64,000 bases of DNA from Mesotaenium endlicherianum. Lineage: Eukaryota. Made by a program: the position numbers and the translations under genes. The first letter of the stretch is position 1. The number at the start of each line of letters is the position of its first letter. Below are positions 48,286 to 63,972 of this stretch, in pieces. The DNA lies in NCBI GenBank assembly GCA_009602735.1, contig WELA01002708.1, positions 1 to 64,000 on the forward strand, read 5' to 3'. Under the pieces are notes generated by a model. That model was not told where the DNA came from, searched no databases, and was given only the letters and a program-made list of their open reading frames with translations.

Positions 48286-51200
48286 ATGCAGCAAACGCAA
48301 TTCAACTATCCGGAATTTGTACCCGACCAATTGCTCACCTCCGGCAACCTGAATGAGCTGTTTGGTTACCTGGAAGAGCAGGAAAGGATCACCAGGACCA
48401 ACCTGCTGGGTATTGGTATTGTATGCGGACTGGAAGTGAGAACAAATACTTCAGGTACCGAATTAACCATTACCAAAGGCTGTGGCGTCACATCAGACGG
48501 ATACCTGGTTTCTTTTCCGGAAACCACGTACACGCAATACAAAGCCTATGATCCGGTCAAACAAAAATATTACGAGCGTTTTGTAGACATAAAGCCCGAT
48601 GATAAGAGCAAAAAACTGTTCGACCTGGACGAGTTGGTGGAATCGGCGGTAGCAGAGAAAACCACGTCGCTCTCGGCTGCGTACCTGGCCGATAAGGTAG
48701 TGTTGTTATATGTGGAGTTGTTGGAAGAGAACGCCAAGAACTGCAATCCCAATTCCTGCGACGACAAAGGGAAAGAAGTCACCATTACGTTCAAACCCCT
48801 GCTGGTTAACAAAGCCGTGGCAGATAAATGGCTTAGCCAGCAAGCATCGGGAAGCACACCTGCTGCTTATCTCGCCCTGCCCATATTAAAGATGCACCGG
48901 TTCAATATCATTGCTACCCAGTTGCGATCATCGGGGCAAGTGCTGGAAGAGTACCGTAAAATACTCAACCCTGCTTTTATCGACAGCGTGCAAAATGCTT
49001 TCATTGAAACCTACAAGCTATTATCGCCATTGGTGAAAGATTTATATGGCACGAATCCTTTTGCCAAATTCTCGCAAGAGTTTGCCTTTTTACATACAAC
49101 CATCAATCAAACAGAAGCGATCAACCTGCAATATTATTACGACCTGTTTTCCGATCTGGTGTTGGCTTATGAAGAACTCAGGGAAACAGGTATGGAGATC
49201 ATCAGCATGTGTTCACCCGATCACAACCTATTCCGTTTACATTTATTGCTCGACCTGGCCATTCACGATGCAGGCGCCATTTCCAGTCAATACAGAACTT
49301 ACTTCATCCCCTCCCCGATCCTCGGTTGTCATTGCAAACAAACCGTTCGTCTGCGCTGGTTGTTTAAAAGAATGGTATTGATGCTGCAAAATTTTTTCAT
49401 TTCATTATCTGTGAAAGGCGGTTTCGGCGCTTCCTGGAAACTGGAATATGAAATGCTGGTGAAAAGAAGCATCCATACCTCCATACGCATTACACCCAGC
49501 AGGCTGGGTAATATAGAACTGGCAGAAAAATCCATCCCTTTTTATTACCAAGTGGCACAGGGAAAGGATAAGTTATACGAAGCATGGAGCCTGGAACGCA
49601 GCCAGGAAAGCAGCGCCCGGGAGATACTCTCCTATCATGCAGATGAATATGCAAACGACGACTATACCAAAAACCCTTTGCGTTACGACCTGGAGCCGTA
49701 TAATTTTTTGCGGATAGAAGGACATATCGGGCAGCCTTACAAGACTGCACTGAGAACCATCCTGAGTATTCGTAACCAGTATCGTCTTCCCTTCGATGTG
49801 ATTGCTTTGAGTGCCGATATCAATTCATTGAAAACCTCGCTGGAATCATTGGGTAAGATGGATACCGTATCGAAACTCATTGAACAATACGCAGAGCAGT
49901 TACAATGCGATTGTGAATTCCAGGACCTGGAAGCTCTGTACGATACTTTATCGGCCGAGCTTACCTGCACCTTATGTAAGGAAGCAAAATATTACTACGA
50001 CATCAGTATTACAAAAGCCGCAGCAGACGTGCAACCGGCTGCGCCCAAATTCCCGCTCCTGAAAAAATGCGATCCCTCTTTCAAAGTGAAGCCCGGTACC
50101 CTGGGTTATGAATTTGAACAATATTATGCCCGTACGGCAAAAATATCGGCGGCAGAGTATATGATGTACAGTTACGATAACAGGGCGATGTATGAAAATG
50201 CATACACACAATATTTTGCTTTGTTGCTGAGCATGGGTAAACTGACCGATACACTCACGCTTACGCTGGGAACTTTCAACCAGGCACATTTCGATACGGC
50301 GTATACTGCAATGCTTGCTACCGCTGAAAGGATCAGGGTACAGATCACCAATGCAGCAGGCGCCCTTTCTGCAGAAAGAGCCCAGACATTGGTGCACATC
50401 GATCAACTGATTGCTGTTTGCATACAGAAACAAATAGACACTTTATACAGGGATTACCTGTTGCGATGGGTATATGTGATGATGCTCCAGAAGTTCGGCT
50501 ATTTCATCCAATCACACCCTGGCATTCAACACAAAGCCGGTGTTCCGGTTGGGGGCACTTTCATCCTGGTTTATCATGAAAAGCCTATTGGGTACACGCC
50601 AATAGATATTGCAAAAGGAGAAGTGATGTTGGCAGAAAACGCCGGCATGCGAACCGCTGTTGAAAAAAAATATTCTGTTGCTACGCATATAAAAGATTTG
50701 CTGGGCAATATTCCCATGGGATCGAGGTATATAGGAGGCAGCCGCAACATATACAAGACGCCGGTAAAAACAATAGAGAAAGAGCCGGTTGAAATGGCTC
50801 CGGATGAATTCAAGATCGCCACCGAAAAGCAACTGGAAGCCTTGCATACCTTGCTCGACACTACGCATGAAAAAGAAATCGACCTCGACAAAGTATTATC
50901 AAACCTGGCCAACTATACGGTGATTGCAGATTTTTATCTTCCTTACCTCTGTTGCTCAGATTGTCCGCCTGTGTTGTTTACTGTAAACGAACTGGTTGTT
51001 CAACCTAAAATAAATGTTACACCCACTACTTTCTGTTCGGGTGACAGCAAAACCTATCCCATCGATAGCTCTCCAGCAGGTGGTGAAGTAACAGGCGAAG
51101 GTGTTACAAAAGACAACAATAACAAATACGGCTTTACTCCCAACGCCATTAAACTGGCTCCGGCAGATAAAGAGAAGCATATTACACTCACGTATACCAT

Positions 51201-52527
51201 CAATGAACAAACGGTCACAATAGCCGTAGATGTGTTCCAGCAACCGGTTGCCGCTTTTGATGTGAAGATAAATGGCACCAGCGCCAGCTTCATTAATAAG
51301 TCTTCTGCCTTTGCCGATAAATGGATCTGGGATTTCGGTAACGGCAAAACAGCTACGGAAAAAGAACCGGTCTTCAATTTTGGAACAGACGGCGATTATA
51401 ATGTAAGTCTTATTGCAGTCAACGGCGCCTGCAATTCAGAGAAAGTCACTAAAAAAGTAACCATTACCACGCCCGATCTTACCATCACCATTCCCAAAAA
51501 CAGCTTCTGTGCAAATGATAAGCCGGTAGAAGTAACCGGTACGCCTGCCGGTGGAACGGTTAGTGGAGAAGGTATTACAAAGGATACCGCCGGTAAATTC
51601 ATGTTCAATCCAGCCAATGTACTCTTGCAGGGAGCAGACCAGAAAAAACTAACGTTAACCTACGCAACTGCCGGTAAATCAAAAGGAACGGATGTAACCG
51701 TTTATGCAGAACCCAAAGCAAGTTTTGCTGTTACCAATGGCTCCACTCCTTCTCTGAAACTGTTCAGGAATACTTCTGTACCTGCTACCGGAACGGTGGC
51801 GTGGAATTTCGGCGATGGCAAAACTTCCAACGAAGCCAATCCTTCACATGATTTCCAGAAAGATGGATCTTATACCGTATCACTTACTGTTTTAAATGGC
51901 TCCTGTGCCGCTACGGCTACGCAAACAGTTAAGATCGTGCTGCCTGTTGTAAAAACTTGTTATACGCTGAATAATGCGATCACTGCATTCAATACATTGA
52001 ATACCACCGAGAATGCGCGCCTGCTCGATCAGGCAACACAGAAAGCCTTTACCACAGCCATTGTGCCCTTCTTTAAAGACCTGAAAGGAATAGATGCAAT
52101 GGGCGCACCCGATAAACAATTGAAAGCCTTTCAGCAAATGAATACGGTAACTTCCATGACCAACTGGATACGGATGTTGGTGATACCTTATCTGGAACTT
52201 ACGAACAGCAGGCTGCAGAATATGGAACTGGCAAGGATACTGACAGACATCGCTTTCTATATCGCCTGCATACAGCCGGCAGATATGGATAAAGCACAAG
52301 TGCTTACCAATACCTATTTCACACAACTCAATGAGTACCTGGGCAGGGTAAATGCAGTCGCCAGGCAGTTTACAGCCGATCAGAAAAAACAATTGCAACC
52401 GGAATTCAACCTCTTCCTGAATGATGTGAAGGCAGAAGAGGAAAGAGTAACCACCAATAAAGAAACCACCGTTAAACCATTGTACACGCATATCCTGGCA
52501 GGATATATACCGCTATTGAGTATTTAA
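48286..52527 (+). CDS. Large PKD-domain protein, putative tail fibre / adhesin
   Basis: N-terminal F..DQLLT..LN...GIVCGL fibre-attachment-like motif; DFYLPYLCC; two PKD domains (WDFGNG, WNFGDG). Confidence 0.7.
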   Translation: MQQTQFNYPEFVPDQLLTSGNLNELFGYLEEQERITRTNLLGIGIVCGLEVRTNTSGTELTITKGCGVTSDGYLVSFPETTYTQYKAYDPVKQKYYERFVDIKPDDKSKKLFDLDELVESAVAEKTTSLSAAYLADKVVLLYVELLEENAKNCNPNSCDDKGKEVTITFKPLLVNKAVADKWLSQQASGSTPAAYLALPILKMHRFNIIATQLRSSGQVLEEYRKILNPAFIDSVQNAFIETYKLLSPLVKDLYGTNPFAKFSQEFAFLHTTINQTEAINLQYYYDLFSDLVLAYEELRETGMEIISMCSPDHNLFRLHLLLDLAIHDAGAISSQYRTYFIPSPILGCHCKQTVRLRWLFKRMVLMLQNFFISLSVKGGFGASWKLEYEMLVKRSIHTSIRITPSRLGNIELAEKSIPFYYQVAQGKDKLYEAWSLERSQESSAREILSYHADEYANDDYTKNPLRYDLEPYNFLRIEGHIGQPYKTALRTILSIRNQYRLPFDVIALSADINSLKTSLESLGKMDTVSKLIEQYAEQLQCDCEFQDLEALYDTLSAELTCTLCKEAKYYYDISITKAAADVQPAAPKFPLLKKCDPSFKVKPGTLGYEFEQYYARTAKISAAEYMMYSYDNRAMYENAYTQYFALLLSMGKLTDTLTLTLGTFNQAHFDTAYTAMLATAERIRVQITNAAGALSAERAQTLVHIDQLIAVCIQKQIDTLYRDYLLRWVYVMMLQKFGYFIQSHPGIQHKAGVPVGGTFILVYHEKPIGYTPIDIAKGEVMLAENAGMRTAVEKKYSVATHIKDLLGNIPMGSRYIGGSRNIYKTPVKTIEKEPVEMAPDEFKIATEKQLEALHTLLDTTHEKEIDLDKVLSNLANYTVIADFYLPYLCCSDCPPVLFTVNELVVQPKINVTPTTFCSGDSKTYPIDSSPAGGEVTGEGVTKDNNNKYGFTPNAIKLAPADKEKHITLTYTINEQTVTIAVDVFQQPVAAFDVKINGTSASFINKSSAFADKWIWDFGNGKTATEKEPVFNFGTDGDYNVSLIAVNGACNSEKVTKKVTITTPDLTITIPKNSFCANDKPVEVTGTPAGGTVSGEGITKDTAGKFMFNPANVLLQGADQKKLTLTYATAGKSKGTDVTVYAEPKASFAVTNGSTPSLKLFRNTSVPATGTVAWNFGDGKTSNEANPSHDFQKDGSYTVSLTVLNGSCAATATQTVKIVLPVVKTCYTLNNAITAFNTLNTTENARLLDQATQKAFTTAIVPFFKDLKGIDAMGAPDKQLKAFQQMNTVTSMTNWIRMLVIPYLELTNSRLQNMELARILTDIAFYIACIQPADMDKAQVLTNTYFTQLNEYLGRVNAVARQFTADQKKQLQPEFNLFLNDVKAEEERVTTNKETTVKPLYTHILAGYIPLLSI

Positions 52528-52529
52528 CC

Positions 52530-54017
52530 ATGCATGCAGGCAAACATATCATCGGGAAACAGTTCCTCGACATCACATATAACGGTAACACCGATGGTAT
52601 TGCTTTGCAGCGAACAACGGAAAACATGTTGCGCAAGGAATTGTTGCCGCAGTTGGAGGCATTATTCGACCGTTATAGTCCAGATGATGAAATAATCTCT
52701 ATCGACCGGTTGGCGTTGGAGTTCACACTTGATTCCAATGATATGGAGAACAACCTGGCACAACGGATCATCGAGGGACTCAACGAAGCACTTGCCAGAA
52801 AGATAAAGGATAAAAGTGCGCGGCCAACACCTGCATCGAAATTTGTACAACTGCTGATCTTCTATCTCCGGAACGGATACCTGCCTTGGTGGAGCCATTT
52901 TACCGGAACAGGAAACTGGCATTCCTTTGTTCTGGAAAACCTTTCTGCTTCTTTACCGGCATACGAAAAAGGGCAATTGCAGGCAGTCATACAGGAAACA
53001 CAGGCACGTCAAAGAGTGGCCGTACAGTTCCATGAAACGTATTTCTGGGAACTGATCAATATACTGTCTGGTTCACAAACAATATTCAACGCATGGTATA
53101 ATGATTTGCAGCATATCACCGAATGGATAGCACGTACAGATCAGCAACAATCATTTCGCGTTAATATCCGGTTATCTATATTGCAGTTCCTCTCTACTCC
53201 TTCGGGAGGAAGCAGCCAGTCACCTAATGCAATGAGCGAACAGTTGGCGAAAATAGTAAAAGCGCAATTGGAAGAAGTATTACCAAAAGGCACCCTTCAC
53301 AAAGAAATAGGTACGCTGAAACTACTTATTGATGAACTAAACAACAAGGATTTTAAAGCACTTATGACACAAGAACTGCGCAGGGAAAAAACAACATCAT
53401 CCGGGTCAACATCTCAACAGGCAACTAATGCAGACAAGACGGAAACCGATACACAGCAAAAAGAACAACCTCCTGCCGCTGTCAATGCAACGCAGGATAA
53501 TCAGCCTGTGCTATCCGAAGCTGACACCATTTACATCAACAATGCCGGTTTGGTAATCGTAGCGCCCTATCTTGGACGATTTTTCGATAAGCTCGGATTG
53601 TTGAATGATAACCAGATCAATAATGTGTCCAGGGCCATCACCCTGTTACAACATATCGTTACTGGTGAAAATGAGTTCGAAGAGTTTGAAGTGGTATTAC
53701 CCAAACTCTTATGCGGCTTGAAGCCACAAGACCCCATTCCTCAGAAATACCAGCTTACAACAGCCGATAAGGAAGCTGCAGCTGAATTGTTGCAGGCGGT
53801 GATTACCAACTGGCAGGTATTGAAAAACACTTCAGTTGCAGGCTTGCGTGAATCCTTCCTGCAAAGAGAAGGCAAACTGAACATGGCAGGTGATCAATGG
53901 CGCCTGAAAGTGCAAACATCATCTTACGATATGCTACTGGATTACCTGCCCTGGAATATTAAAATGATCAAATTAGCCTGGATGCAATCGTTGCTGGTGG
54001 TGGAATGGAATGACTGA
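52530..54017 (+). CDS. Contractile injection system tape measure protein (Afp14-like)
   Basis: HIIGKQ...IDRL, YLRNGYLPWW, INNAGLVIVAPYL, FLQREGKL, LLDYLPW. Confidence 0.85.
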   Translation: MHAGKHIIGKQFLDITYNGNTDGIALQRTTENMLRKELLPQLEALFDRYSPDDEIISIDRLALEFTLDSNDMENNLAQRIIEGLNEALARKIKDKSARPTPASKFVQLLIFYLRNGYLPWWSHFTGTGNWHSFVLENLSASLPAYEKGQLQAVIQETQARQRVAVQFHETYFWELINILSGSQTIFNAWYNDLQHITEWIARTDQQQSFRVNIRLSILQFLSTPSGGSSQSPNAMSEQLAKIVKAQLEEVLPKGTLHKEIGTLKLLIDELNNKDFKALMTQELRREKTTSSGSTSQQATNADKTETDTQQKEQPPAAVNATQDNQPVLSEADTIYINNAGLVIVAPYLGRFFDKLGLLNDNQINNVSRAITLLQHIVTGENEFEEFEVVLPKLLCGLKPQDPIPQKYQLTTADKEAAAELLQAVITNWQVLKNTSVAGLRESFLQREGKLNMAGDQWRLKVQTSSYDMLLDYLPWNIKMIKLAWMQSLLVVEWND

Positions 54018-54034: not shown

Positions 54035-57000
54035 ATGTTCTCAACTGCTGAAAAAACATCAAAGACCGCGTCATCAGCTCCAAAACAAGGAGCTGGCGGT
54101 AGTTTTTTCAGGAAAGCGGAAGCGCTTTCTTTTTTCGGAACACAGGAAACACCTTCATTTTTCAACGGTGGAAGTTTCATACAACCAAAATTATCTGTTA
54201 GCAGTCCGGATGACCCACACGAAAAAGAAGCCGATGCCGTAGCAGACCATGTGATGCGCGCACCCGATACGGCAACACCTCAACTGAAACAGGAAGACAA
54301 CGAAGTACAGCGAAAAACAGCGGCAGACGACGATAAAAAAGAACTGCATCCCAAACTGGAAACACCGGCTATAACAGCCATACAGTGTAAGGAAGAAGAA
54401 GGTACTACTTCCGATGCTGAAGTGATACAAACCGCTTTACTGCAAAGACACGGCCGCGCACCGCCAACTCCCGTAACAGGTTTTGAACAACAACTGACCC
54501 ACTCCAAAGGAGGAGGCAGCGCTTTGCCCGGCTCTACCCGCCAGTTCATGGAAACCAGGTTTGGCGCCGACTTCGGCGGAGTACGCATTCATACCGGCGC
54601 CGTAGCAGAATCGCTGAGCAGTAATATACAGGCACAGGCATTCACACACGGTAACGATATTTATTTCAATGCCGGCAAATATGCACCCGATACAGGGGCA
54701 GGCGGTTTATTGCTTGCCCATGAATTAACGCATACCATCCAACAAGGCGCCAGCAAATCCGTTGCATCCAACACGCATCCTGTTGCGCGCAAACCCATCT
54801 TACAACGAACAGCGTCTGACCGGCCTGTTCCTTCACAATTGAATAATGCCGTAGCCAAAGCCAAATCGGAAGTAGGTAAAGTGAATGCCGATAAAGAAGG
54901 GGCTGATGGATACCGTACCGGTTGGGAAAGACTGGTAGAATATTTCAAAACAACATTGGGCGCCGATAAAGTATTGCCGCAAGGCGCTGCCATGGTGCAG
55001 GGTGCCGTTGCGGAACAGGATATAAAGAAACAAAGAAGGGTTAATGGACTGCCGCCCGCTAATCCACGCCCCGCAAGCGGACCTTATCAAAGAGATGCTA
55101 TGCCCAGTTGGTGTGGCATATTTGTGTTCTGGTCGCTCCACAAAGGCGGCGTGCCCCTGAATCCCTGGATACTGGGTGGCCATAATATAGACCTGAATGC
55201 CGCCTACCCTCCAGGCTACCACCCGAAAGCCGGTGATATTGCCTATCGGAATGCATTCTCGCATTATGCCATTGTTGAAAAATCAAACGGCGATACTGTT
55301 ACAACGGTTAACGGCAATACGGCCGGTGAAGATAATCTTGGCGGGCAGGTACAGGTAAAAGATCATCCCCTTGCCAATTGGACAGGCTTCTTCGATCCAT
55401 TGATGATGAAGAACGGAGAATTGGGTGCAGGTGAACAGGCCGCAGAAAGCAAACCCAAAACATTGCGCGAACTGCGACAGGAATTATTCCATGTAAACAG
55501 GAAAATGCAGGACGGCCCCGAGCCTGAACAAGAGATGACCGAAGAAGTACACCTGCAAGCCAAACAGGAACCGCTGAGTAGCTGGCAGGTGAACGAGAGT
55601 GGCCGGTTAACACATGCGCCACCTGTGGTTCAACCTGCCGCTGTGCAGGCGAAAGAAGAACCGGTGCAACAGAAAGACGAAGAGCACAAAGAGGAAGAAG
55701 AAAAACACGCGCCGGTACCGGTACAATTGAAAACAGCTGAACCCAAAGTGCAGCGCTCCTGGTTGAGTGATGCATGGTCTACCGTGTCAAATGCCGTGGG
55801 CGATCTTGTATCGCAGGGACTCGAAGCCGGTAAACGCATCCTGTTAAGAGAGGCACGCGATTTTGCAATGGCCATACCGGGTTATCGTGCATTGCGGGTG
55901 GTATTGGGTGAAGATCCCATCACCAATGAAGTAGTAGAAAGGAACGGCCATAATTTCATAGAAGCGGCATTCGACATTATGCCGGGTGGCCGGTTATTGC
56001 ACCAGAAGCTCGAAGAGTTGGGTGCACTCACCGATGCGGAAGCATGGGTAGATCAGCAGATAGCCAACCTCGTATCTGTTGTACACCGCATTGTTACCAG
56101 TATTGAAAACTTCTGGTCAAGCTTGTCATTGGACGACCTGGGCAGTCCGCAACGCGTATTTGAACGCATTGGCAATATTATCCACGACACTATCAGCAGC
56201 ATTGTGCGTTTTGCCGAGAACGCCGCAAGCGAATTACTTTCTATTGTCAAGCGCTTCCTGTTGAACCAACTGGTTTCCTTTGTACGCAATCATACAACAG
56301 CCTACCCCTTGCTCTGTGTGATACTGGGTGAAGACCCCATCACACACCAGCAGGTAGCGAAGAATGGAACGAATATCCTCAATGCATTACTGGAACTGGG
56401 TGGCGAAGAAGGAAGAGAGCAAAGGCGGCAGATGCAGGATACCGGCACTTTCCAACGGATCGCAGCATGGATCGATCGCGGCATAACGGTATTCAGTAAT
56501 GCATATGAACAGATACGGGCAGGTATTGCATCGATCTGGGATTTTGTGTCCATCGAAAGCCTCATGCATCCCATCGATACCTTCAATCGTATCTACAACA
56601 TATTCGCACCGCCGATACAACAGGTATGGAATTTCGTGCGCGATACAGCAGTGGTGATATTGCGTTTCATCAAAGAAGTATTGCTGCGCAGGTTGTCGAA
56701 CTGGGCAAGAACAGTGCGCGGATACCAGTTACTCACCGTGATCATTGGCAAAGATCCGTTCACCGATGAAGTCGTTCCGCGCACGATGGAAAACATCATC
56801 CGTGGCTTCATGAGCCTGATGGAAGGCGGACTGGAACAGTTCAACCAGTTGAAAGAATCAGGCGCTATCGACAGAACCACACAACGCATCAATGCGGCGG
56901 TTGACCGGCTCAACATGACGCCTGCCGGAATTGTACAACTGTTCATCAATCTCTGGCATTCCATGAGCCTGAACGATCTCATTCACCCGATCGATGCTTT

Positions 57001-59152
57001 CAGGCGCATCGTGGCTACATTCGGCGAGCCCATCGGCCGGCTCATTGCCTTTGTGGTAGAGATCGTCAAAATTGTTGTGGAAGTGATCCTGCAGGTGATG
57101 AACTTCCCCACCGATCTCATCAGCAATATCATCACCAAAGCCATGCAGGCTTTTGAAATGATCAAGCGCGATCCGGTAGGGTTCCTCAAAAACCTGCTGC
57201 GCGCCATCAAGGAAGGATTCACACAGTTCTTCAATAATATTCTCAGGCATTTGCTCAACGGACTCACGGGCTGGTTGATGAGCGAGTTACGTGACGCGAA
57301 TGTGCCCGCGCCGCAAGACTTCTCCCTGCGGGGCATCATCAGTTGGGTATTGCAGGTATTGGGATTGAGCATGGAAACCATCTGGCAGAAATTATCGGAA
57401 CATCCGCGGATAGGACCACAACGTGTAGCGCGCATACGCAGCATGATCAATACGCTGGAAGGCATCTGGACTTTCATCAGAGATGTACAGGAAAGAGGTA
57501 TTGTTGCCATCTGGGATAAGATACAGGAGCAATTGAGTAACCTGTGGAATACCATATTGGATGCTGTGAAGAATTGGATCATGGAGCAGATCGTAAACCG
57601 TGTGGTAGCCAGGTTGCTGAGTATGCTGGACCCTACGGGTATCATGGCCGTGATCAACAGCGCGATTGCTTTGTACAGAGCTGTACAATCCTTCATCCGT
57701 TACCTGCGAGAAATGCTTACAGTGGTGAATTCATTCGTAGAAGGCGTAGTGGAAATAGCGAGTGGCAATACAAGGCGTGCGGCAGACTTCCTGGAAAACA
57801 GTCTCGACAGGGCCATGCCCATCGTCATAGGCTTCCTTGCTAACCAAGTGGGCTTAAGTGGTGTGGGACGCCGCATTGCTGAACTCATAGGCGCTGCAAG
57901 ACAATTGGTTGACAGGGCTGTGACCTGGTTGGTGAACCGGGCTGTGGATACAGGCTTCGCTTTATTCGACCGGTTGATGGCTGCGGGAAGAAGTGCGGTA
58001 GCAGCAGTGCTTGATTGGTTGGGATTCAGGGAAAGATTTGCTACGGATAATGGAACAAATCATACCATATATATAAGAGATTCCGGGCAAGCACCAACAC
58101 TGATTATTGAAAGTTCTCCTGTGGACGTTGCTACATTCTTTAACCAACAGGAAGCGGCTATTACTGCGTCATCAACTATGACTACCACAGATAAGAATAC
58201 TAAACTAGGAAAGATCACACATGGAAGGAATTTACTCCAAGGATTGCAAACATTAATGAATAGCGCCAAAGCTGCAAACAACTCAAATCCGAGGATTCCG
58301 CAAATGATTGTAGAAATCATTGGCGTTATAAAGGAAATTGAACCAGGTGGTACACAAGAAATGGTTCCCGCTGCCGAATTCAATCCCGGATTCTTAAATG
58401 CTAAAGCCAGTTCATTTTCTGCAAGATATGTTTACAGAGGTGGTACAACAGCTGCTGGGGTTGCCATACCTAAAAACCATGCTGATGGAACCGAACCATC
58501 GGATGCGAATTTGGTAGATGCATGGAGGATATTAACAGGATTGCAGTTAAGTAGTAGGTGGGTAAGGTTCCATATACTGAACAGAGAAGTAGGTGGTATT
58601 GCCGCCGACTCTAATTTAATTCCTACACCTACTTTGATCAACAATGAGTACAAGGATGCTTTGGAAACCGATTTGAAAGGATATTACAATTCGGGCCTGC
58701 CCGTTTGGCTACGGGCTTCGATAACTTACAGGCCTATTTATAATTCTTTGTTCCCGAATAGATATTCAGCACAAGCCGGGGCAATGAAATATCAAAATAA
58801 TCAATGGGTTGAGGACCCTACCAAACAAAAAACGTTTAATGTTAGTATTGACCCGCCTGAAAATGCAGGCTTTAATATTAATCTGGTCTTAACTGATGCT
58901 GATGCCCAGTATTTCATTGTAAATATGTCGACTGTAACAAGAGATATGATTGATGTTTTAAGAGCAAGAAGGCCAGCAAGCGGTTATACATATTATCGTC
59001 AAATGGAAAGAGCACTTGCATCCGAAGTTTTTGGAACTGACGTTCTATCTTTTGATCCGGAAGTTATTAGTGCGCTGAGTCCTACCCAGGCACAATCGAA
59101 CAGAATAAATGCATATAGAAGAGGATTGTCAAGTGTAAATTGGATTTTCTAA
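54035..59152 (+). CDS. DUF4157 multidomain cargo/effector: CHAP-like amidase, helical repeats and a nuclease-like C-terminus
   Basis: FGADFGGVRIHT...AHELTHTIQQ; WCGIFVFW...HYAIV...NGNT; HILNREVGG...NLIP...N. Confidence 0.8.
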   Translation: MFSTAEKTSKTASSAPKQGAGGSFFRKAEALSFFGTQETPSFFNGGSFIQPKLSVSSPDDPHEKEADAVADHVMRAPDTATPQLKQEDNEVQRKTAADDDKKELHPKLETPAITAIQCKEEEGTTSDAEVIQTALLQRHGRAPPTPVTGFEQQLTHSKGGGSALPGSTRQFMETRFGADFGGVRIHTGAVAESLSSNIQAQAFTHGNDIYFNAGKYAPDTGAGGLLLAHELTHTIQQGASKSVASNTHPVARKPILQRTASDRPVPSQLNNAVAKAKSEVGKVNADKEGADGYRTGWERLVEYFKTTLGADKVLPQGAAMVQGAVAEQDIKKQRRVNGLPPANPRPASGPYQRDAMPSWCGIFVFWSLHKGGVPLNPWILGGHNIDLNAAYPPGYHPKAGDIAYRNAFSHYAIVEKSNGDTVTTVNGNTAGEDNLGGQVQVKDHPLANWTGFFDPLMMKNGELGAGEQAAESKPKTLRELRQELFHVNRKMQDGPEPEQEMTEEVHLQAKQEPLSSWQVNESGRLTHAPPVVQPAAVQAKEEPVQQKDEEHKEEEEKHAPVPVQLKTAEPKVQRSWLSDAWSTVSNAVGDLVSQGLEAGKRILLREARDFAMAIPGYRALRVVLGEDPITNEVVERNGHNFIEAAFDIMPGGRLLHQKLEELGALTDAEAWVDQQIANLVSVVHRIVTSIENFWSSLSLDDLGSPQRVFERIGNIIHDTISSIVRFAENAASELLSIVKRFLLNQLVSFVRNHTTAYPLLCVILGEDPITHQQVAKNGTNILNALLELGGEEGREQRRQMQDTGTFQRIAAWIDRGITVFSNAYEQIRAGIASIWDFVSIESLMHPIDTFNRIYNIFAPPIQQVWNFVRDTAVVILRFIKEVLLRRLSNWARTVRGYQLLTVIIGKDPFTDEVVPRTMENIIRGFMSLMEGGLEQFNQLKESGAIDRTTQRINAAVDRLNMTPAGIVQLFINLWHSMSLNDLIHPIDAFRRIVATFGEPIGRLIAFVVEIVKIVVEVILQVMNFPTDLISNIITKAMQAFEMIKRDPVGFLKNLLRAIKEGFTQFFNNILRHLLNGLTGWLMSELRDANVPAPQDFSLRGIISWVLQVLGLSMETIWQKLSEHPRIGPQRVARIRSMINTLEGIWTFIRDVQERGIVAIWDKIQEQLSNLWNTILDAVKNWIMEQIVNRVVARLLSMLDPTGIMAVINSAIALYRAVQSFIRYLREMLTVVNSFVEGVVEIASGNTRRAADFLENSLDRAMPIVIGFLANQVGLSGVGRRIAELIGAARQLVDRAVTWLVNRAVDTGFALFDRLMAAGRSAVAAVLDWLGFRERFATDNGTNHTIYIRDSGQAPTLIIESSPVDVATFFNQQEAAITASSTMTTTDKNTKLGKITHGRNLLQGLQTLMNSAKAANNSNPRIPQMIVEIIGVIKEIEPGGTQEMVPAAEFNPGFLNAKASSFSARYVYRGGTTAAGVAIPKNHADGTEPSDANLVDAWRILTGLQLSSRWVRFHILNREVGGIAADSNLIPTPTLINNEYKDALETDLKGYYNSGLPVWLRASITYRPIYNSLFPNRYSAQAGAMKYQNNQWVEDPTKQKTFNVSIDPPENAGFNINLVLTDADAQYFIVNMSTVTRDMIDVLRARRPASGYTYYRQMERALASEVFGTDVLSFDPEVISALSPTQAQSNRINAYRRGLSSVNWIF

Positions 59153-59167
59153 ATAAATTTTAAATAT

Positions 59168-60367
59168 ATGGCAACCATTTTTAAAAGACGTAGACGCAGA
59201 TCCATCACTGCCAATGAGGGTAAGTTCTTTAAGAAAGAGAATACCCAGGAGCAAAGTTTTTTCAGCGGCGCTGATCATGATGGATTTTTCCAACCACAAC
59301 CGCAAACACAACAAGTACAACGAAAATGTGCTGAATGTGAGAATGAAGAAAAAAAGGCCCAGCGCATGACCGATGATAAGAAAGAAGAGGATAAAACCGT
59401 GCATCGCGAAACGGATAAAAAAGAAGACGACGATAAAAAGTTGCACCGGCAAACTGATGGGGCCGCTACTGCCTCAGGCGGCGCGGCTTCTTATGTCCAT
59501 TCGCTCAATGGCAAAGGTAGCCCGCTCCCTGCTTCTACAAAGCAATTCTTCCAACAAAGGATGGGCGTTGATTTCAGCCAGGTAGCCATTCATACGGAAA
59601 AGGAAGCCTCCGATTCTGCCAAAGCCATCAATGCAAAAGCCTACACAGTGGGCAATCATATCGTATTCAAAGAAGGACAATATGCACCGGATACATACGA
59701 AGGGAAAAAACTGCTCGCACATGAATTAATGCATGTGGTACAGCAGGCAGGAGCCATCATGCGGAAAGTAAATCCGGTAATCCATGAAGACGATGACAAG
59801 ACCGCTTTGAGGTCGGTTTCAGGTAAGGGAACGCTTACCGATAATAAAACCAATAATGGCGCTTCGGCAGATGTGAGCGCACAAACCACCGCCAATTACG
59901 ACCATGGCACTTTTACAACAGCCAATGCTACCAGCAACCGCGCAACAGGTTGTAGTGATTGTGGATCTGCTCCCTGTGCTACGATGAGTGGTGTTATGAT
60001 CTCGGTATTCCATGCGCATCCGGTTATTGCACCACCTGTTATGCCGCCCGGACTCACACCTTGTCAGCAGTTGCGCGTACAACATTTCATCAATAACGTA
60101 TTGATGCCGCACGAAAGACAGCATGTGGCGGCATTCAATACCTACAATGGAACAGTGCGTACACCATTTACGGTAACTGCGTGCCATACAGACCAGGGAT
60201 TGAGCGATGCGCTCCTCCCCTTGCACAACAGTATAGATGCCAGTCGTATTGCTGCCGCCAATGCCCTGAGTGATGCCCTGGATCCTTTCAATACCACAAT
60301 AGACATTGATTGCCAGGAGCCGAAAGCCCCTGCTTCCCCATCACCTAAAAAACAACAGAAGAAATAA
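59168..60367 (+). CDS. Second DUF4157 cargo protein with a C-terminal HExxH domain
   Basis: QRKCAECE, DFSQVAIHT...AHELMHVVQQ, second motif HERQH. Confidence 0.8.
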   Translation: MATIFKRRRRRSITANEGKFFKKENTQEQSFFSGADHDGFFQPQPQTQQVQRKCAECENEEKKAQRMTDDKKEEDKTVHRETDKKEDDDKKLHRQTDGAATASGGAASYVHSLNGKGSPLPASTKQFFQQRMGVDFSQVAIHTEKEASDSAKAINAKAYTVGNHIVFKEGQYAPDTYEGKKLLAHELMHVVQQAGAIMRKVNPVIHEDDDKTALRSVSGKGTLTDNKTNNGASADVSAQTTANYDHGTFTTANATSNRATGCSDCGSAPCATMSGVMISVFHAHPVIAPPVMPPGLTPCQQLRVQHFINNVLMPHERQHVAAFNTYNGTVRTPFTVTACHTDQGLSDALLPLHNSIDASRIAAANALSDALDPFNTTIDIDCQEPKAPASPSPKKQQKK

Positions 60368-60539: not shown

Positions 60540-61889
60540 GTGATCTACCAGTTAAACCATAGCAATACGGTCCCATCATTGAGGATTGCGATGGATCATT
60601 GCAAAACCTTGATCGGATTGCGTTTGCAGGCGTATTTCGACAATGGCTCTTTCGACCCGGTTGCCTGGCTCAAAGAACAATATCAAAATGAACCACCGAA
60701 TAAAGGCTGGCTCTCTTTTATCCCCTTGCAGGAATACACCGAATGGATCGTGGTCATGTTAACGTTGGCGCCGCATGTGTATCCTAATTTTTTTGAATCC
60801 CTGATCGTAACACACCTGCCCTCCGGTGGCGATTTTCCTGAATTTGGCGGCGTAAAAGCGGCTAATCATCGAGGCATGTTGCCTACCGGCGAAACGATCC
60901 AGTTCATCATAGCCGGTGATGACGTTGATAAACGGCTGCAACTACAGGAACTTTTCCGTGAAACGCATTTCTTTTACCGCCAGGGCATTTTATGGCTGGA
61001 GCCGGTCAAGGAAGGCGAACCGGTAATGAGCGGGCGAATCGTGTTGCCGCAGGAAAATATAGAACGCATCTTATTCGGTCGTGAGTCGGCACCGCGTTAT
61101 GGACTCGATTTCCCTGCCAAACAAATTATTACGGCCATGGAATGGAACGATGTGGTATTGCATCCGCGCACCATGCAACAGGTAAAAGACATCAGTACCT
61201 GGCTCAATCACCATCACCGGTTTGCTGAAGACAATAATTTGAAAAGAAAGATCAAACCCGGTTACCGCGTACTTTTTTACGGCCCTTCCGGAACGGGTAA
61301 AACATTAACAGCCGCACTGCTGGGTAAAGAGTTCGGCAAAGATGTTTATCGCATCGACCTTTCACAAATTGTAAGTAAATACATTGGTGAAACGGAAAAG
61401 AACCTGGAAGCCGTTTTCAAAAGAGCGGAAAGCAAGGACTGGATATTGTTTTTCGATGAGGCCGATGCACTCTTCGGCAAACGAACCAGTGTACAAAGTT
61501 CGCACGACAAATACGCCAACCAGGAAGTGAGCTATCTCCTGCAACGTGTGGAAGACTATCCCGGCCTGCTCATCCTGGCATCCAACTTCAAGAACAACCT
61601 CGATGAAGCCTTCCTGCGCCGCTTCCACTCCGTGGTACACTTCCCCATGCCCAATACCGCCGAACGGCATCATCTCTGGAAAAAAACAATGCCCGCAGGC
61701 TTGCAACACGATGGCTCTGTGAACCTCCTTGAACTGGCCGACCAATTCGAGCTGACAGGCGCTTCCATCCTGAATGCCGTGCAGTTTGCCACTTTGCAAA
61801 GCTATGCCCGCGGCGATGGTAAATTGTTGCAGTCAGACCTGCTCGAAGGAGTGAAAAAAGAATTCCTCAAAGAAGAGAAGTCTTTTTAA
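60540..61889 (+). CDS. AAA+ ATPase (Afp15/Pvc15-like)
   Basis: GPSGTGKT, DLSQIVSKYIGETEKNL, LFFDEADALFGKRT, YLLQRVE; the start could be 60540 or 60591. Confidence 0.92.
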   Translation: MIYQLNHSNTVPSLRIAMDHCKTLIGLRLQAYFDNGSFDPVAWLKEQYQNEPPNKGWLSFIPLQEYTEWIVVMLTLAPHVYPNFFESLIVTHLPSGGDFPEFGGVKAANHRGMLPTGETIQFIIAGDDVDKRLQLQELFRETHFFYRQGILWLEPVKEGEPVMSGRIVLPQENIERILFGRESAPRYGLDFPAKQIITAMEWNDVVLHPRTMQQVKDISTWLNHHHRFAEDNNLKRKIKPGYRVLFYGPSGTGKTLTAALLGKEFGKDVYRIDLSQIVSKYIGETEKNLEAVFKRAESKDWILFFDEADALFGKRTSVQSSHDKYANQEVSYLLQRVEDYPGLLILASNFKNNLDEAFLRRFHSVVHFPMPNTAERHHLWKKTMPAGLQHDGSVNLLELADQFELTGASILNAVQFATLQSYARGDGKLLQSDLLEGVKKEFLKEEKSF

Positions 61890-61910: not shown

Positions 61911-62603
61911 ATGGCGAACATGATTCAGTTGCTTTTGGTAGAAGACGACCAGCGTATTGCAGCATTGATCAAGCAGGGGCTGGAAGAACAGGGATTTGAA
62001 GTAACAGCTGCCTATGATGGTTTGATGGGAAAAAAACTGGCTGTTAACAGGTCATACGATATCATTATCACCGATATCATACTACCCAACCTGAATGGAA
62101 TCGACCTGTGCAAAGAGATCAGGCGCGTTAAGCCCGATGTGCCCATTATCATGCTCACAGCCCTTGGTACCACCGACGATAAAGTAGAAGGATTTGATGC
62201 CGGCGCCGACGATTACCTGGTAAAACCCTTTGAACTGCGGGAATTATTGGTAAGGATACGGGCATTGCTGAAAAGAAGCGCTTCCAATAACCAGGTGCAG
62301 GGATTCATATTGCGGTATGCCGATATAGAAATGAACATGCATACCAAAATTGTAAAACGAAACAACAAAGAAATTGAGCTGACGCCAAAAGAATTGAAGT
62401 TGCTCGAATACATGATGCAAAACCCTGAAAGGGTGCTGAGCAGAACAGAGATCGCAGAAAAGGTTTGGGATACTTCTTTCGATACCGGCACCAATTTCAT
62501 TGACGTGTACATCAATTACCTGCGGAAAAAGATTGATAAAGACTTCGATACCAAATTGATCCATACCAAATCGGGACTCGGGTTCATCTTCAAAAAAGAG
62601 TAA
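61911..62603 (+). CDS. OmpR/CusR-family response regulator
   Basis: LLVEDD, DIILP, GADDYLVKPF, winged helix VYINYLRKKID. Confidence 0.95.
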   Translation: MANMIQLLLVEDDQRIAALIKQGLEEQGFEVTAAYDGLMGKKLAVNRSYDIIITDIILPNLNGIDLCKEIRRVKPDVPIIMLTALGTTDDKVEGFDAGADDYLVKPFELRELLVRIRALLKRSASNNQVQGFILRYADIEMNMHTKIVKRNNKEIELTPKELKLLEYMMQNPERVLSRTEIAEKVWDTSFDTGTNFIDVYINYLRKKIDKDFDTKLIHTKSGLGFIFKKE

Positions 62604-62604
62604 T

Positions 62605-63972
62605 ATGCAGATCAGGACCAGGCTAACATTATTGTTCACTGCGCTGACAGCGGCCATTTTGCTGGCTTTTGCCCTGATCGTATATGTTTCTTTCTCCCGA
62701 ACAAGGGAAGATGAATATTATAAAAGGCTCAAACAACAAGCTACCATCAAAGCCAACCTGCTGTTTGATACGAAAATCGATCCGGGCGTATTGCAGTTGA
62801 TTTACAAGAACACATCCGATCCTTTATTCCAGGAAGAAGTAGCTATTTATGATACAGGTTTTCATTTATTGTACCACGATGCGGTAGATATCGATAAAGT
62901 GAAAGAGACCCGGGACATGATTGATCAGACCATTGCACAGAAAGAGCTCCGGTTCTATGTAAAAGACATGCAGGTGGTGGCATTCGTTTATACGCGTAAA
63001 GATCATACTTATGTAATCACTGCCGCGGCCAAAGATGGCAATGGACTGGCCAAACTGGCGGCCTTGCGCAATACCCTGCTGGTGGTATTCGTAGGCGCCA
63101 TTGTACTGATTTTTTTGGCAGGCCGTTTTTTGGCCCGTCAATCACTGAATCCCGTAGCCGCAATGGTAGACAAGGTGAAAACCATTACGGCCACCAACCT
63201 CGATTTCAGGGTGGCCGAGGGCAACCGGAAAGATGAGATCGCTTCCCTGGCCATCACCTTCAATGAAATGCTCAACCGCCTGGAAAATTCATTCGACGCC
63301 CAGAAACATTTTGTATCGAATATCTCCCATGAATTGAGAACGCCGCTGACTGCCATGCTTACAGAGCTGCAACTGACTGTATCGAAAGAAAGAAGCAATG
63401 AAGAATACAAAGCGGCGATCACACATATTATAGGTGATACCAAAAAGATCATTCGCCTTTCCAACAGCCTGCTCGACTTGGCAAAAGCCAGTTATGATCA
63501 AACCGAAATAGCGTTCAAAGAACTGCGGATAGACGAGGTACTGCTCGACGCCCGTAACGATGTGCTGCACAACCAGCCCGATGTGAGCATCAATATCCGT
63601 TTTGAAAAAGAGATCGAAAACGATGATTTCGTTTCAGTGCAGGGCAATGAATACCTGCTGAAAGCTGCTTTCAGCAACTTAATGGAAAATGGCTGTAAAT
63701 TCTCGGCGAATAAACAATGTACTGCTTCTATCTCGTACGATCAACAACATGTGATCCTGCATTTTACCGATACAGGTATAGGAATCCCACCCGATGAGCT
63801 GGCACATATTTTTACCCCTTTTTATAGGGGAAAGAATAAACAATTTACCGATGGCAATGGCATCGGTCTTCCATTAACGCAAAAGATCATTGGATTGCAC
63901 AATGGTACTATTACGGTGCATTCAAAAGAAGGAGAAGGCACTACATTTGTCGTTACTTTCAAGCATGTTTAA
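62605..63972 (+). CDS. HAMP-domain sensor histidine kinase
   Basis: Two transmembrane segments, HAMP, SHELRTPL, NLMENGCKF, DTGIGI, GIGL. Confidence 0.95.
   Translation: MQIRTRLTLLFTALTAAILLAFALIVYVSFSRTREDEYYKRLKQQATIKANLLFDTKIDPGVLQLIYKNTSDPLFQEEVAIYDTGFHLLYHDAVDIDKVKETRDMIDQTIAQKELRFYVKDMQVVAFVYTRKDHTYVITAAAKDGNGLAKLAALRNTLLVVFVGAIVLIFLAGRFLARQSLNPVAAMVDKVKTITATNLDFRVAEGNRKDEIASLAITFNEMLNRLENSFDAQKHFVSNISHELRTPLTAMLTELQLTVSKERSNEEYKAAITHIIGDTKKIIRLSNSLLDLAKASYDQTEIAFKELRIDEVLLDARNDVLHNQPDVSINIRFEKEIENDDFVSVQGNEYLLKAAFSNLMENGCKFSANKQCTASISYDQQHVILHFTDTGIGIPPDELAHIFTPFYRGKNKQFTDGNGIGLPLTQKIIGLHNGTITVHSKEGEGTTFVVTFKHV

Follow-up and report, generated by a model that had tools for sequence, protein, structure and literature searches.

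A predicted DUF4157-led cargo for an extracellular contractile injection system with a CHAP-like domain, a tape-measure-related trunk and an exchangeable nuclease-like tip

Described DUF4157 cargos and the P0001 gene

Proteins that begin with a DUF4157 domain have been described as cargos of extracellular contractile injection systems (eCIS), and we compared with them P0001, a protein of 1705 amino acids (aa) encoded on the forward strand at positions 54035..59152 of a 64,000-nucleotide stretch of DNA (hereafter the window; contig WELA01002708.1 of assembly GCA_009602735.1, deposited as Mesotaenium endlicherianum). The closest characterised architecture is that of Tme (BN159_7576) from Streptomyces davawensis, which was reported to combine DUF4157 with a region resembling tape-measure proteins and with an EndA-like nuclease shown to cut DNA, and for which 'tme-like' genes were defined across phyla (Nagakubo 2024, PMC11126660). 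As far as that description goes, Tme and P0001 are each the largest open reading frame (ORF) of their contractile injection system (CIS) cluster, start with DUF4157, have a central remote similarity to phage tape-measure proteins and end in a His-dependent non-specific endonuclease (EndA-like), which in P0001 is predicted. Tme is described as a protein of 2247 aa, ~70% of it predicted to be disordered, with a cationic segment and with several transmembrane helices that are likewise predicted; its gene sits immediately 5' of those for the baseplate, whereas that of P0001 follows the baseplate and tape-measure (CIS_TMP) genes and precedes a small DUF4157 gene and an AAA ATPase gene. Moreover, Tme acts in the development of its own producer, and its description mentions no NlpC/P60 or CHAP domain; the likeness of the two proteins is one of description, not of sequence.

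In AlgoCIS of Algoriphagus machipongonensis, the DUF4157 cargos Cgo1 (498 aa) and Cgo2 (ALPR1_12690, 1228 aa) were reported to fill the tube lumen, and their loading to need a disordered N-terminal domain and to depend on the AAA+ protein Alg15 (PMC8894135, bioRxiv 10.64898/2026.05.27.728243). Going by this report, AlgoCIS and the P0001 locus are both Bacteroidota eCIS with a large and a small DUF4157 protein encoded beside an AAA+ ATPase; the N-terminal domains of the AlgoCIS pair are described as disordered and similar, and those of the P0001 pair may be. Cgo2, again compared by description, is ~480 aa shorter and has a C-terminal function given as unknown in the source. No Algoriphagus record was present among the 77 related loci that were fetched. 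Fusions of an N-terminal DUF4157 to a C-terminal toxin, with a linker of sometimes more than 1000 aa, were reported by Geller 2021 (PMC8213781), whose tables show an enrichment of Endonuclea_NS_2 in eCIS (odds ratio 31, from 35 occurrences in five phyla, with the large MED217_08570 of 4554 nt among the genes), no enrichment of CHAP (odds ratio 1.08, from 10 occurrences) and 0 occurrences of PT-TG; in Danov 2024 (PMC11297309), 983 of the 1130 predicted DUF4157 toxins carried no other annotated domain. The middle of the fusions is a linker in these two descriptions, whereas the supposed 'linker' of P0001 could be resolved into an NlpC/P60-CHAP active site that is strictly conserved, a set of three repeats of 140 aa and a region related to tape-measure proteins. 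Since Tme, Cgo1 and Cgo2 and the DUF4157-linker-toxin fusions are precedents, the architecture is not an undescribed one, although the initial annotation knew of no described effector that has it.

For P0001 we favour, with moderate confidence, the reading that it is a DUF4157-led, tape-measure-related eCIS cargo which would be loaded into the tube lumen via its N-terminus and would likely cut peptidoglycan and then nucleic acid. A word-seeded family search returned 677 homologues at E <= 0.001 (length 937-2984 aa), and the domain-wise BLAST counts given here refer to the 120 best of them. The number of homologues and the conservation of the motifs across them indicate that the motifs of P0001 are not due to chance. 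DUF4157, the Cys/His region described below and both halves of the trunk were found in all 120, while aa 1341-1500 were common to 13 and aa 1501-1705 to 28 of these homologues. A delivery trunk of ~1335 aa is conserved and a tip of ~370 aa is exchangeable; P0001 is therefore built like a polymorphic toxin. Two warheads had been proposed for this protein, and the nuclease-like tip fits the part of a variable payload, whereas the CHAP-like domain, which belongs to the conserved trunk in 120/120 relatives, does not fit that of a second one. The comparison connects a Bacteroidota cargo family with the Streptomyces Tme class and also shows the last ~370 aa to be an exchangeable toxin slot, filled most often by a His-Me nuclease.

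The ORF has an ATG start, and it and every motif quoted in the initial annotation were found at the positions claimed. The first 160 aa (54035..54514, forward strand, like all features below) contain FF motifs and 74% disorder-promoting residues (composition only), and this N-terminal domain was common to 119 of the 120 relatives; by analogy with Cgo1 and Cgo2 it is predicted to be a disordered loading signal. It is followed by the DUF4157/eCIS_core domain at aa 164-239 (54524..54751; PF13699, E 4.7e-30, 104 bits at a cut-off of 22), which in agreement with the earlier call contains HELTH at aa 229-233 (54719-54733), an HExxH motif retained in 121/121 family members. Together the two N-terminal regions were 29% identical over 231 aa (E 9e-21) to those of the small DUF4157 protein encoded next to P0001, with most of this similarity coming from DUF4157. 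Pfam searches with the whole of P0001 and with its sub-regions returned nothing beyond DUF4157, and NCBIfam searches returned no match at all.

The CHAP-like domain and the tape-measure-related trunk

An NlpC/P60-CHAP-like papain-fold domain covers aa ~260-465 (54812..55429). Its motifs are WCGIF (55109-55123), PKAGDIAY (55223-55246), HYAIVE (55262-55279) and TVNGNT (55304-55321), and the candidate catalytic residues are Cys360 (55112-55114), His410 (55262-55264) and Asn426 (55310-55312). WCGxF (Cys360), His410 and NGN[TS] (Asn426 and Asn428) were invariant in alignments of 30 and 121 family members, the Cys/His/Asn set being kept in 121/121. Among 25 scanned relatives, five were matched by Pfam CHAP at the homologous place, two of them above the 26-bit cut-off (27.0 and 26.8). 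An AlphaFold2 model of aa 246-480, based on a 36-sequence alignment, was confident (pLDDT 85.9, pTM 0.82) and placed Cys360 at the N-terminus of a helix (model residues 115-125), His410 at the beginning of a strand (165-173) and Asn426 on the adjacent strand. Such an arrangement of a Cys on a helix, a His on a strand and a neighbouring polar residue is the canonical papain-like layout. Foldseek searches with this model gave a best E of 2.4e-3, with CHAP or NlpC/P60 wall hydrolases in 23 of the first 25 rows; at E <= 0.001 neither this model nor that of the tip had a match. Further structural matches were CHAP or NlpC/P60 domains from a tail hub (phi812 hub 9eum) and from a tailocin baseplate (Diffocin 8v3w_H). 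On the basis of the invariant residues, the CHAP matches of the relatives, the confident model and the Foldseek rows, the CHAP-like call of the initial annotation is right at the level of the fold and the active site, which are predicted to be of the papain-like NlpC/P60-CHAP type.

The domain is an optional accessory of DUF4157 cargos and invariant only within the family of ~1700-aa proteins, since it is missing from related proteins such as P0122, the closest tip relative outside the family (61% tip identity), which consists of the N-terminal domain, DUF4157, the second trunk half and the tip, without CHAP-like domain and repeats. In P0123 and P0162 the CHAP-like domain was found N-terminal to DUF4157, and this reversed order indicates that the module moves independently. 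Full-text searches of the literature brought up no account of a DUF4157 eCIS cargo with a conserved NlpC/P60-CHAP module, with the limits that Supplementary Fig. 15 of Geller 2021 may show such architectures and that three of the 15 supplementary files of that paper lay outside the search. The module is widespread and, in the literature searched, undescribed.

Downstream of the CHAP-like domain, an acidic linker rich in E, Q, V and P (aa 481-599, 55475..55831, net charge -10) was detectably conserved in only 87 of the 120 relatives. It leads to three tandem repeats of 140 aa (aa 600-1019, 55832..57091), identified by local alignment against shuffled sequences, with pairwise z values of 28.9-34.3 (200 shuffles); self-BLAST of the trunk reported no repeats, whereas the shuffle-controlled alignment detected them. 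A PT-TG-like element, G[EK]DP[IF]T, opens each repeat and is located at aa 625, 765 and 905, and in 17 of 25 relatives Pfam PT-TG matches fell on the repeat units. The long helical repeat region of the initial annotation is therefore present and more regular than had been described, with a helical character that is inferred from composition (P+G 0.09) for the trunk as a whole. The non-repetitive part of the trunk (aa 1020-1335, 57092..58039) is related to tape-measure proteins: over aa ~674-1332, a span that extends into the repeats, 10 of the 11 PHROG families matched carried the annotation 'tail length tape-measure protein' (the best at E 9.8e-17), and two of these families were also matched by the relative P0012. 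This part is the trunk module that most often accompanies the tip, and it does so in many proteins from which the CHAP-like domain and the repeats are missing. No Pfam tape-measure family matched P0001, and a search of the ESM Atlas with the trunk returned unnamed clusters only.

Like phage tape-measure proteins with wall-hydrolase motifs, P0001 would be a long helical protein in a contractile tail tube combined with a papain-fold hydrolase; it differs from them in adding DUF4157 and a toxin tip and in that its locus has a separate PF19268 ruler. This dedicated CIS_TMP gene (52530..54017, PF19268, E 5e-112) lies directly 5' of P0001 and is our reason to reject the idea that P0001 is itself the length-determining tape measure. 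For the same reason we regard the trunk as a tape-measure-derived part of the payload and not as a length ruler.

The nuclease-like tip and its exchange

The variable C-terminal tip (aa 1336-1705, 58040..59149) is predicted to consist of a pre-toxin three-helix bundle, a divergent Endonuclea_NS_2/His-Me nuclease core (aa ~1440-1611, 58352..58867) and a C-terminal helical subdomain. The core contains the motifs RFHILNREVGG (58565-58597), NLIP (58613-58624) and LINN (58634-58645). In 13 tip-sharing proteins, W1509, F1512, H1513, N1516, G1520, G1521, S1526, N1527, L1528, P1530, T1531, P1532, N1536 and E1544 were invariant; in a tip-only alignment of 25 sequences with 15-56% identity, the invariant columns were reduced to G1485, H1513, G1521, N1527 and N1536. 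Hhalign comparison of the tip subfamily with the tips of 22 relatives that had a precomputed PF13930 match gave a probability of 99.3% (E 9.6e-21, 233 columns), and the motif region alone gave 98.2% (E 3.7e-14). PF13930 was matched by 18 of the 25 aligned related tips, and relatives with the same tip as P0001 scored 17.2-18.6 bits, below the cut-off of 27. Of 121 tips, 66 contained the pattern H-h-h-N..G..N-h-x-P..N, in each case about equally far from the end of the trunk, which makes the His-Me nuclease type the commonest payload in the family. The sole nuclease in a profile search of the PDB was EssD/EsaD, at a non-significant E of 0.24 and aligned on the motif, and all look-alikes of the tip in the ESM atlas were Endonuclea_NS_2 clusters (score 0.82, to be taken as a lead only).

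Structure prediction of the tip was less conclusive, with a moderate model (pLDDT 70.9, pTM 0.47) that fell below 50 across domain residues 146-188, part of the motif included; its core superposed solely on the beta-beta-alpha-Me non-specific nuclease fold family. Modelling each domain had been suggested at the outset as a check, and it thus yielded a confident fold for the CHAP-like domain and a model of the tip that is weak at the motif itself. In line with the hhalign result and the invariant H1513, N1527 and N1536, we conclude from the sequence comparisons that the tip belongs, as a divergent member, to the Endonuclea_NS_2-type His-Me nucleases and has an additional N-terminal bundle and C-terminal helical subdomain, so that the earlier assignment to the His-Me non-specific nucleases is borne out at the level of the family. 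The predicted fold class is that of the beta-beta-alpha-Me nucleases EndA, NucA and Serratia nuclease, and the series H..GG..N-L-x-P..N..E of P0001 aligns with GHL..GG..NL..N..E of EssD, a PF13930 toxin of Staphylococcus aureus (EsaD/EssD). The tip of P0001 has Phe-His where most Endonuclea_NS_2 relatives have Gly-His, it is extended by the three-helix bundle and by the helical subdomain of ~95 aa, and it is carried by an eCIS, whereas EsaD/EssD is carried by a type VII secretion system.

A genome scan confirmed 612 relatives out of 640 pattern matches. Most belonged to Bacteroidota (Chitinophagaceae, Prolixibacteraceae, Pedobacter, Daejeonella, Spirosoma, Aquimarina and Maribacter), and others were found in Verrucomicrobia, Polyangiaceae, Pseudomonas, Williamsia and one cyanobacterium; the P0001-type tip itself occurred in 4 of the 401 sampled genomes of the phylum. 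The tips of the family fell into 15 clusters, among them Pfam Endonuclea_NS_2, RNAse_A_bac and HHH-bearing forms, when clustering was redone from the end of the trunk, where single linkage still joins 82 of 121 tips; a version based on the last 380 aa was too loose. An exhaustive HMMER scan of 1.84 billion representatives with the tip returned 118 clusters at E <= 0.001; 35 of these reached E <= 1e-10, and 9 reached E <= 1e-30. Among 26 tip-bearing proteins scanned, 11 contained DUF4157, eight matched PF13930 and none carried markers of other secretion systems. DUF4157 proteins of 2040-2341 aa had the tip, and in them the trunk, the CHAP-like domain and the repeats were absent. Where eCIS delivery is to be engineered, the junction between trunk and tip, near aa 1335, offers a natural site for swapping payloads. 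At the other end of the size range, P0055, P0059 and P0063 (2895-2917 aa) have two DUF4157 domains (in P0055 two eCIS_core stretches, 206 bits), and these relatives of ~2900 aa look like fusions of the big cargo to a second DUF4157 cargo; after the gene of this type at L015:5941-14694, the next ORF encodes a DUF7003 protein.

Proposed action, target and gene neighbourhood

In the favoured reading, the AAA ATPase would recognise the disordered N-terminus and thread P0001 into the tube, as for Cgo1 and Cgo2 of AlgoCIS, and contraction would eject the protein as an extended chain. The CHAP-like domain would then cut peptidoglycan locally, in the manner of tail-associated lysins and of the hydrolase motifs of tape-measure proteins, the tape-measure-like trunk may help in the passage of the membrane, as proposed by analogy with phage tape-measure proteins, and the nuclease tip would degrade nucleic acid in the cytoplasm of the target, comparable to the C-terminal domain of Tme, which cuts DNA. 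Cys360, His410 and His1513 offer concrete residues for mutation. What AlgoCIS-type eCIS attack, and how they act, has so far been unknown, and P0001 provides a hypothesis of a bacterial target, which we infer and consider plausible. A more far-reaching proposal, which we put forward tentatively, is that P0001 is the type example of a family of more than 600 loci, mostly of Bacteroidota, that encode self-translocating, tape-measure-derived eCIS payloads: the NlpC/P60-CHAP domain would breach the wall, the trunk would cross the inner membrane and the exchangeable tips would kill inside. If this were true, the particles of AlgoCIS type that come from soil and water Bacteroidota would be tailocins that carry a payload against other bacteria, which would answer the question of what these AlgoCIS-type eCIS target.

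Several observations weigh against the favoured reading or against settling on a bacterial target. The Cys/His region of P0001 had no Pfam match, PF05257 included, even at E <= 10, sequence and profile searches of the PDB with P0001 gave nothing significant (5udm_B at E 0.38, the others unrelated), Pfam found no wall-binding domain (LysM, SH3) on P0001, and similarity of fold does not establish peptidoglycan as the substrate. As to the trunk, the relative P0038 had no PHROG match, and tape-measure profiles may partly reward helical composition; membrane insertion is weakly supported, given that a hydropathy scan revealed a single strongly hydrophobic stretch, aa 997-1025, which contains charged residues. 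The tip of P0001 did not match PF13930 even at E <= 10 on the sub-region. No immunity-like ORF lies between P0001 and the next DUF4157 gene, the gap being 15 nt, and likewise no small ORF follows the big gene in the loci with the same tip (L005, L009 and L014). Moreover, nuclease cargos occur also in eCIS that are aimed at eukaryotes. Finally, the AlgoCIS particles were reported to kill none of the bacteria tested (PMC8894135, bioRxiv 10.64898/2026.05.27.728243).

The main rival explanation, which we judge rather unlikely, turns on the substrate of the CHAP-like domain, whose structural matches are mostly wall hydrolases. It holds that the domain is a papain-like peptidase that processes the cargo itself by cutting it, possibly together with the HExxH domain DUF4157, and so either removes the loading signal or frees the tip after delivery, with the nuclease as the sole warhead. 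A eukaryotic target (for example a protist, fungus or invertebrate), with the nuclease as the toxin and a CHAP-like domain whose role has nothing to do with peptidoglycan, appears quite unlikely. The best-studied eCIS act on eukaryotes, and Pne1 is a nuclease toxic to eukaryotic cells. It is listed, as cargo of the metamorphosis-associated contractile structures (MAC), among the characterised cargos, AlgoCIS was described as without effect on the bacteria tested (PMC8894135, bioRxiv 10.64898/2026.05.27.728243), and several eCIS toxins were reported to kill both E. coli and yeast (Geller 2021, PMC8213781). The NlpC/P60-CHAP active site, kept in 121/121, is hard to explain under a eukaryotic target unless the domain acts on a bacterial wall or processes the protein itself. 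Most EsaD-type Endonuclea_NS_2 toxins are antibacterial, which also counts against such a target.

The third explanation, that the effector acts on the producer or its kin (programmed lysis, release of extracellular DNA or of particles), with hydrolase and nuclease aiding self-lysis, seems very unlikely to us. The absence of an immunity gene adjoining P0001 and the two-component regulator pair encoded directly downstream would fit it; Tme, as described, works in the development of its producer and in the release of extracellular DNA (PMC11126660), and a contribution of toxins to producer lysis was raised by Geller 2021 (PMC8213781). The exchange of tips between close relatives, however, is typical of antagonistic toxins, and the gene order is of the extracellular AlgoCIS type, in which the cargo genes precede the AAA ATPase at the 3' end, whereas the tme gene is described as lying just upstream of the baseplate genes. 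This order was conserved: 36 of the 77 related loci contained the CHAP-like region and the trunk by tblastn, and among those of the 36 with sufficient flanking DNA, 31 of 32 had CIS_TMP directly upstream, while a second DUF4157 gene followed downstream in 28 of 29 and an AAA ATPase gene in 27 of 29. The sequence of tape-measure gene, big gene, small DUF4157 gene and AAA ATPase gene is the AlgoCIS arrangement.

The check for immunity genes covered the adjacent positions, and a gene elsewhere in the genome is possible. In 19 related loci, small ORFs (205-285 aa) located 3' of the big gene were considered as immunity candidates: nine formed one family, another encoded DUF7003 and one had a weak Imm11 match (E 0.01), and no comparable small ORF was found in the 64-kb window. 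The family of nine (~200-235 aa) lies between the big gene and the small DUF4157 gene in L013, L020, L027, L031, L033, L035, L038, L062 and L065, and is absent from the window and from the loci with the same tip. The four members scanned (L013:11355-12008, L020:12216-12923, L027:11393-12031 and L031:11610-12227) had no Pfam match; these proteins could be immunity or adaptor proteins.

The eCIS setting assumed in the initial annotation was confirmed by a complete cluster around P0001, in which P0001 is the largest ORF. Upstream, genes encode Pvc16_N, the sheath, two gp19-type tube proteins, CIS_tube, the spike (Phage_GPD/Phage_base_V), gp25 and a 1241-aa Baseplate_J protein, followed after two large ORFs by CIS_TMP, the stop of which is 17 nt ahead of the start of P0001. 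The gene that begins 15 nt past the end of P0001 encodes the small DUF4157 protein of 399 aa (59168..60367, PF13699, E 3.4e-31), probably a second cargo resembling Cgo1; the two are the only DUF4157 genes above the cut-off in the whole 4.04-Mb genome. The C-terminal half of the small protein (aa ~200-399) had no Pfam or PHROG match and contains several Cys residues. Next comes the AAA ATPase (60540..61889, PF00004, E 9e-28), which from work on AlgoCIS and on the Photorhabdus virulence cassettes (PVC) is predicted to be a cargo-loading ATPase like Alg15 and Pvc15. Directly 3' of it, an OmpR-type response regulator and a HAMP/HisKA histidine kinase (61911..63972) are possible regulators of the eCIS operon. 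The whole P0001 gene was also recovered, at 95-100% of the sampled words, in run assemblies from nine studies, including wastewater metagenome libraries that are labelled RNA-Seq, are flagged as possibly DNA and provide no evidence of expression. The two large ORFs between the Baseplate_J and tape-measure genes encode a 999-aa protein without a Pfam match (45275..48274) and a 1413-aa protein with PKD domains (48286..52527), and both are candidates for the parts (cage, fibre or receptor-binding) on which the target would depend.

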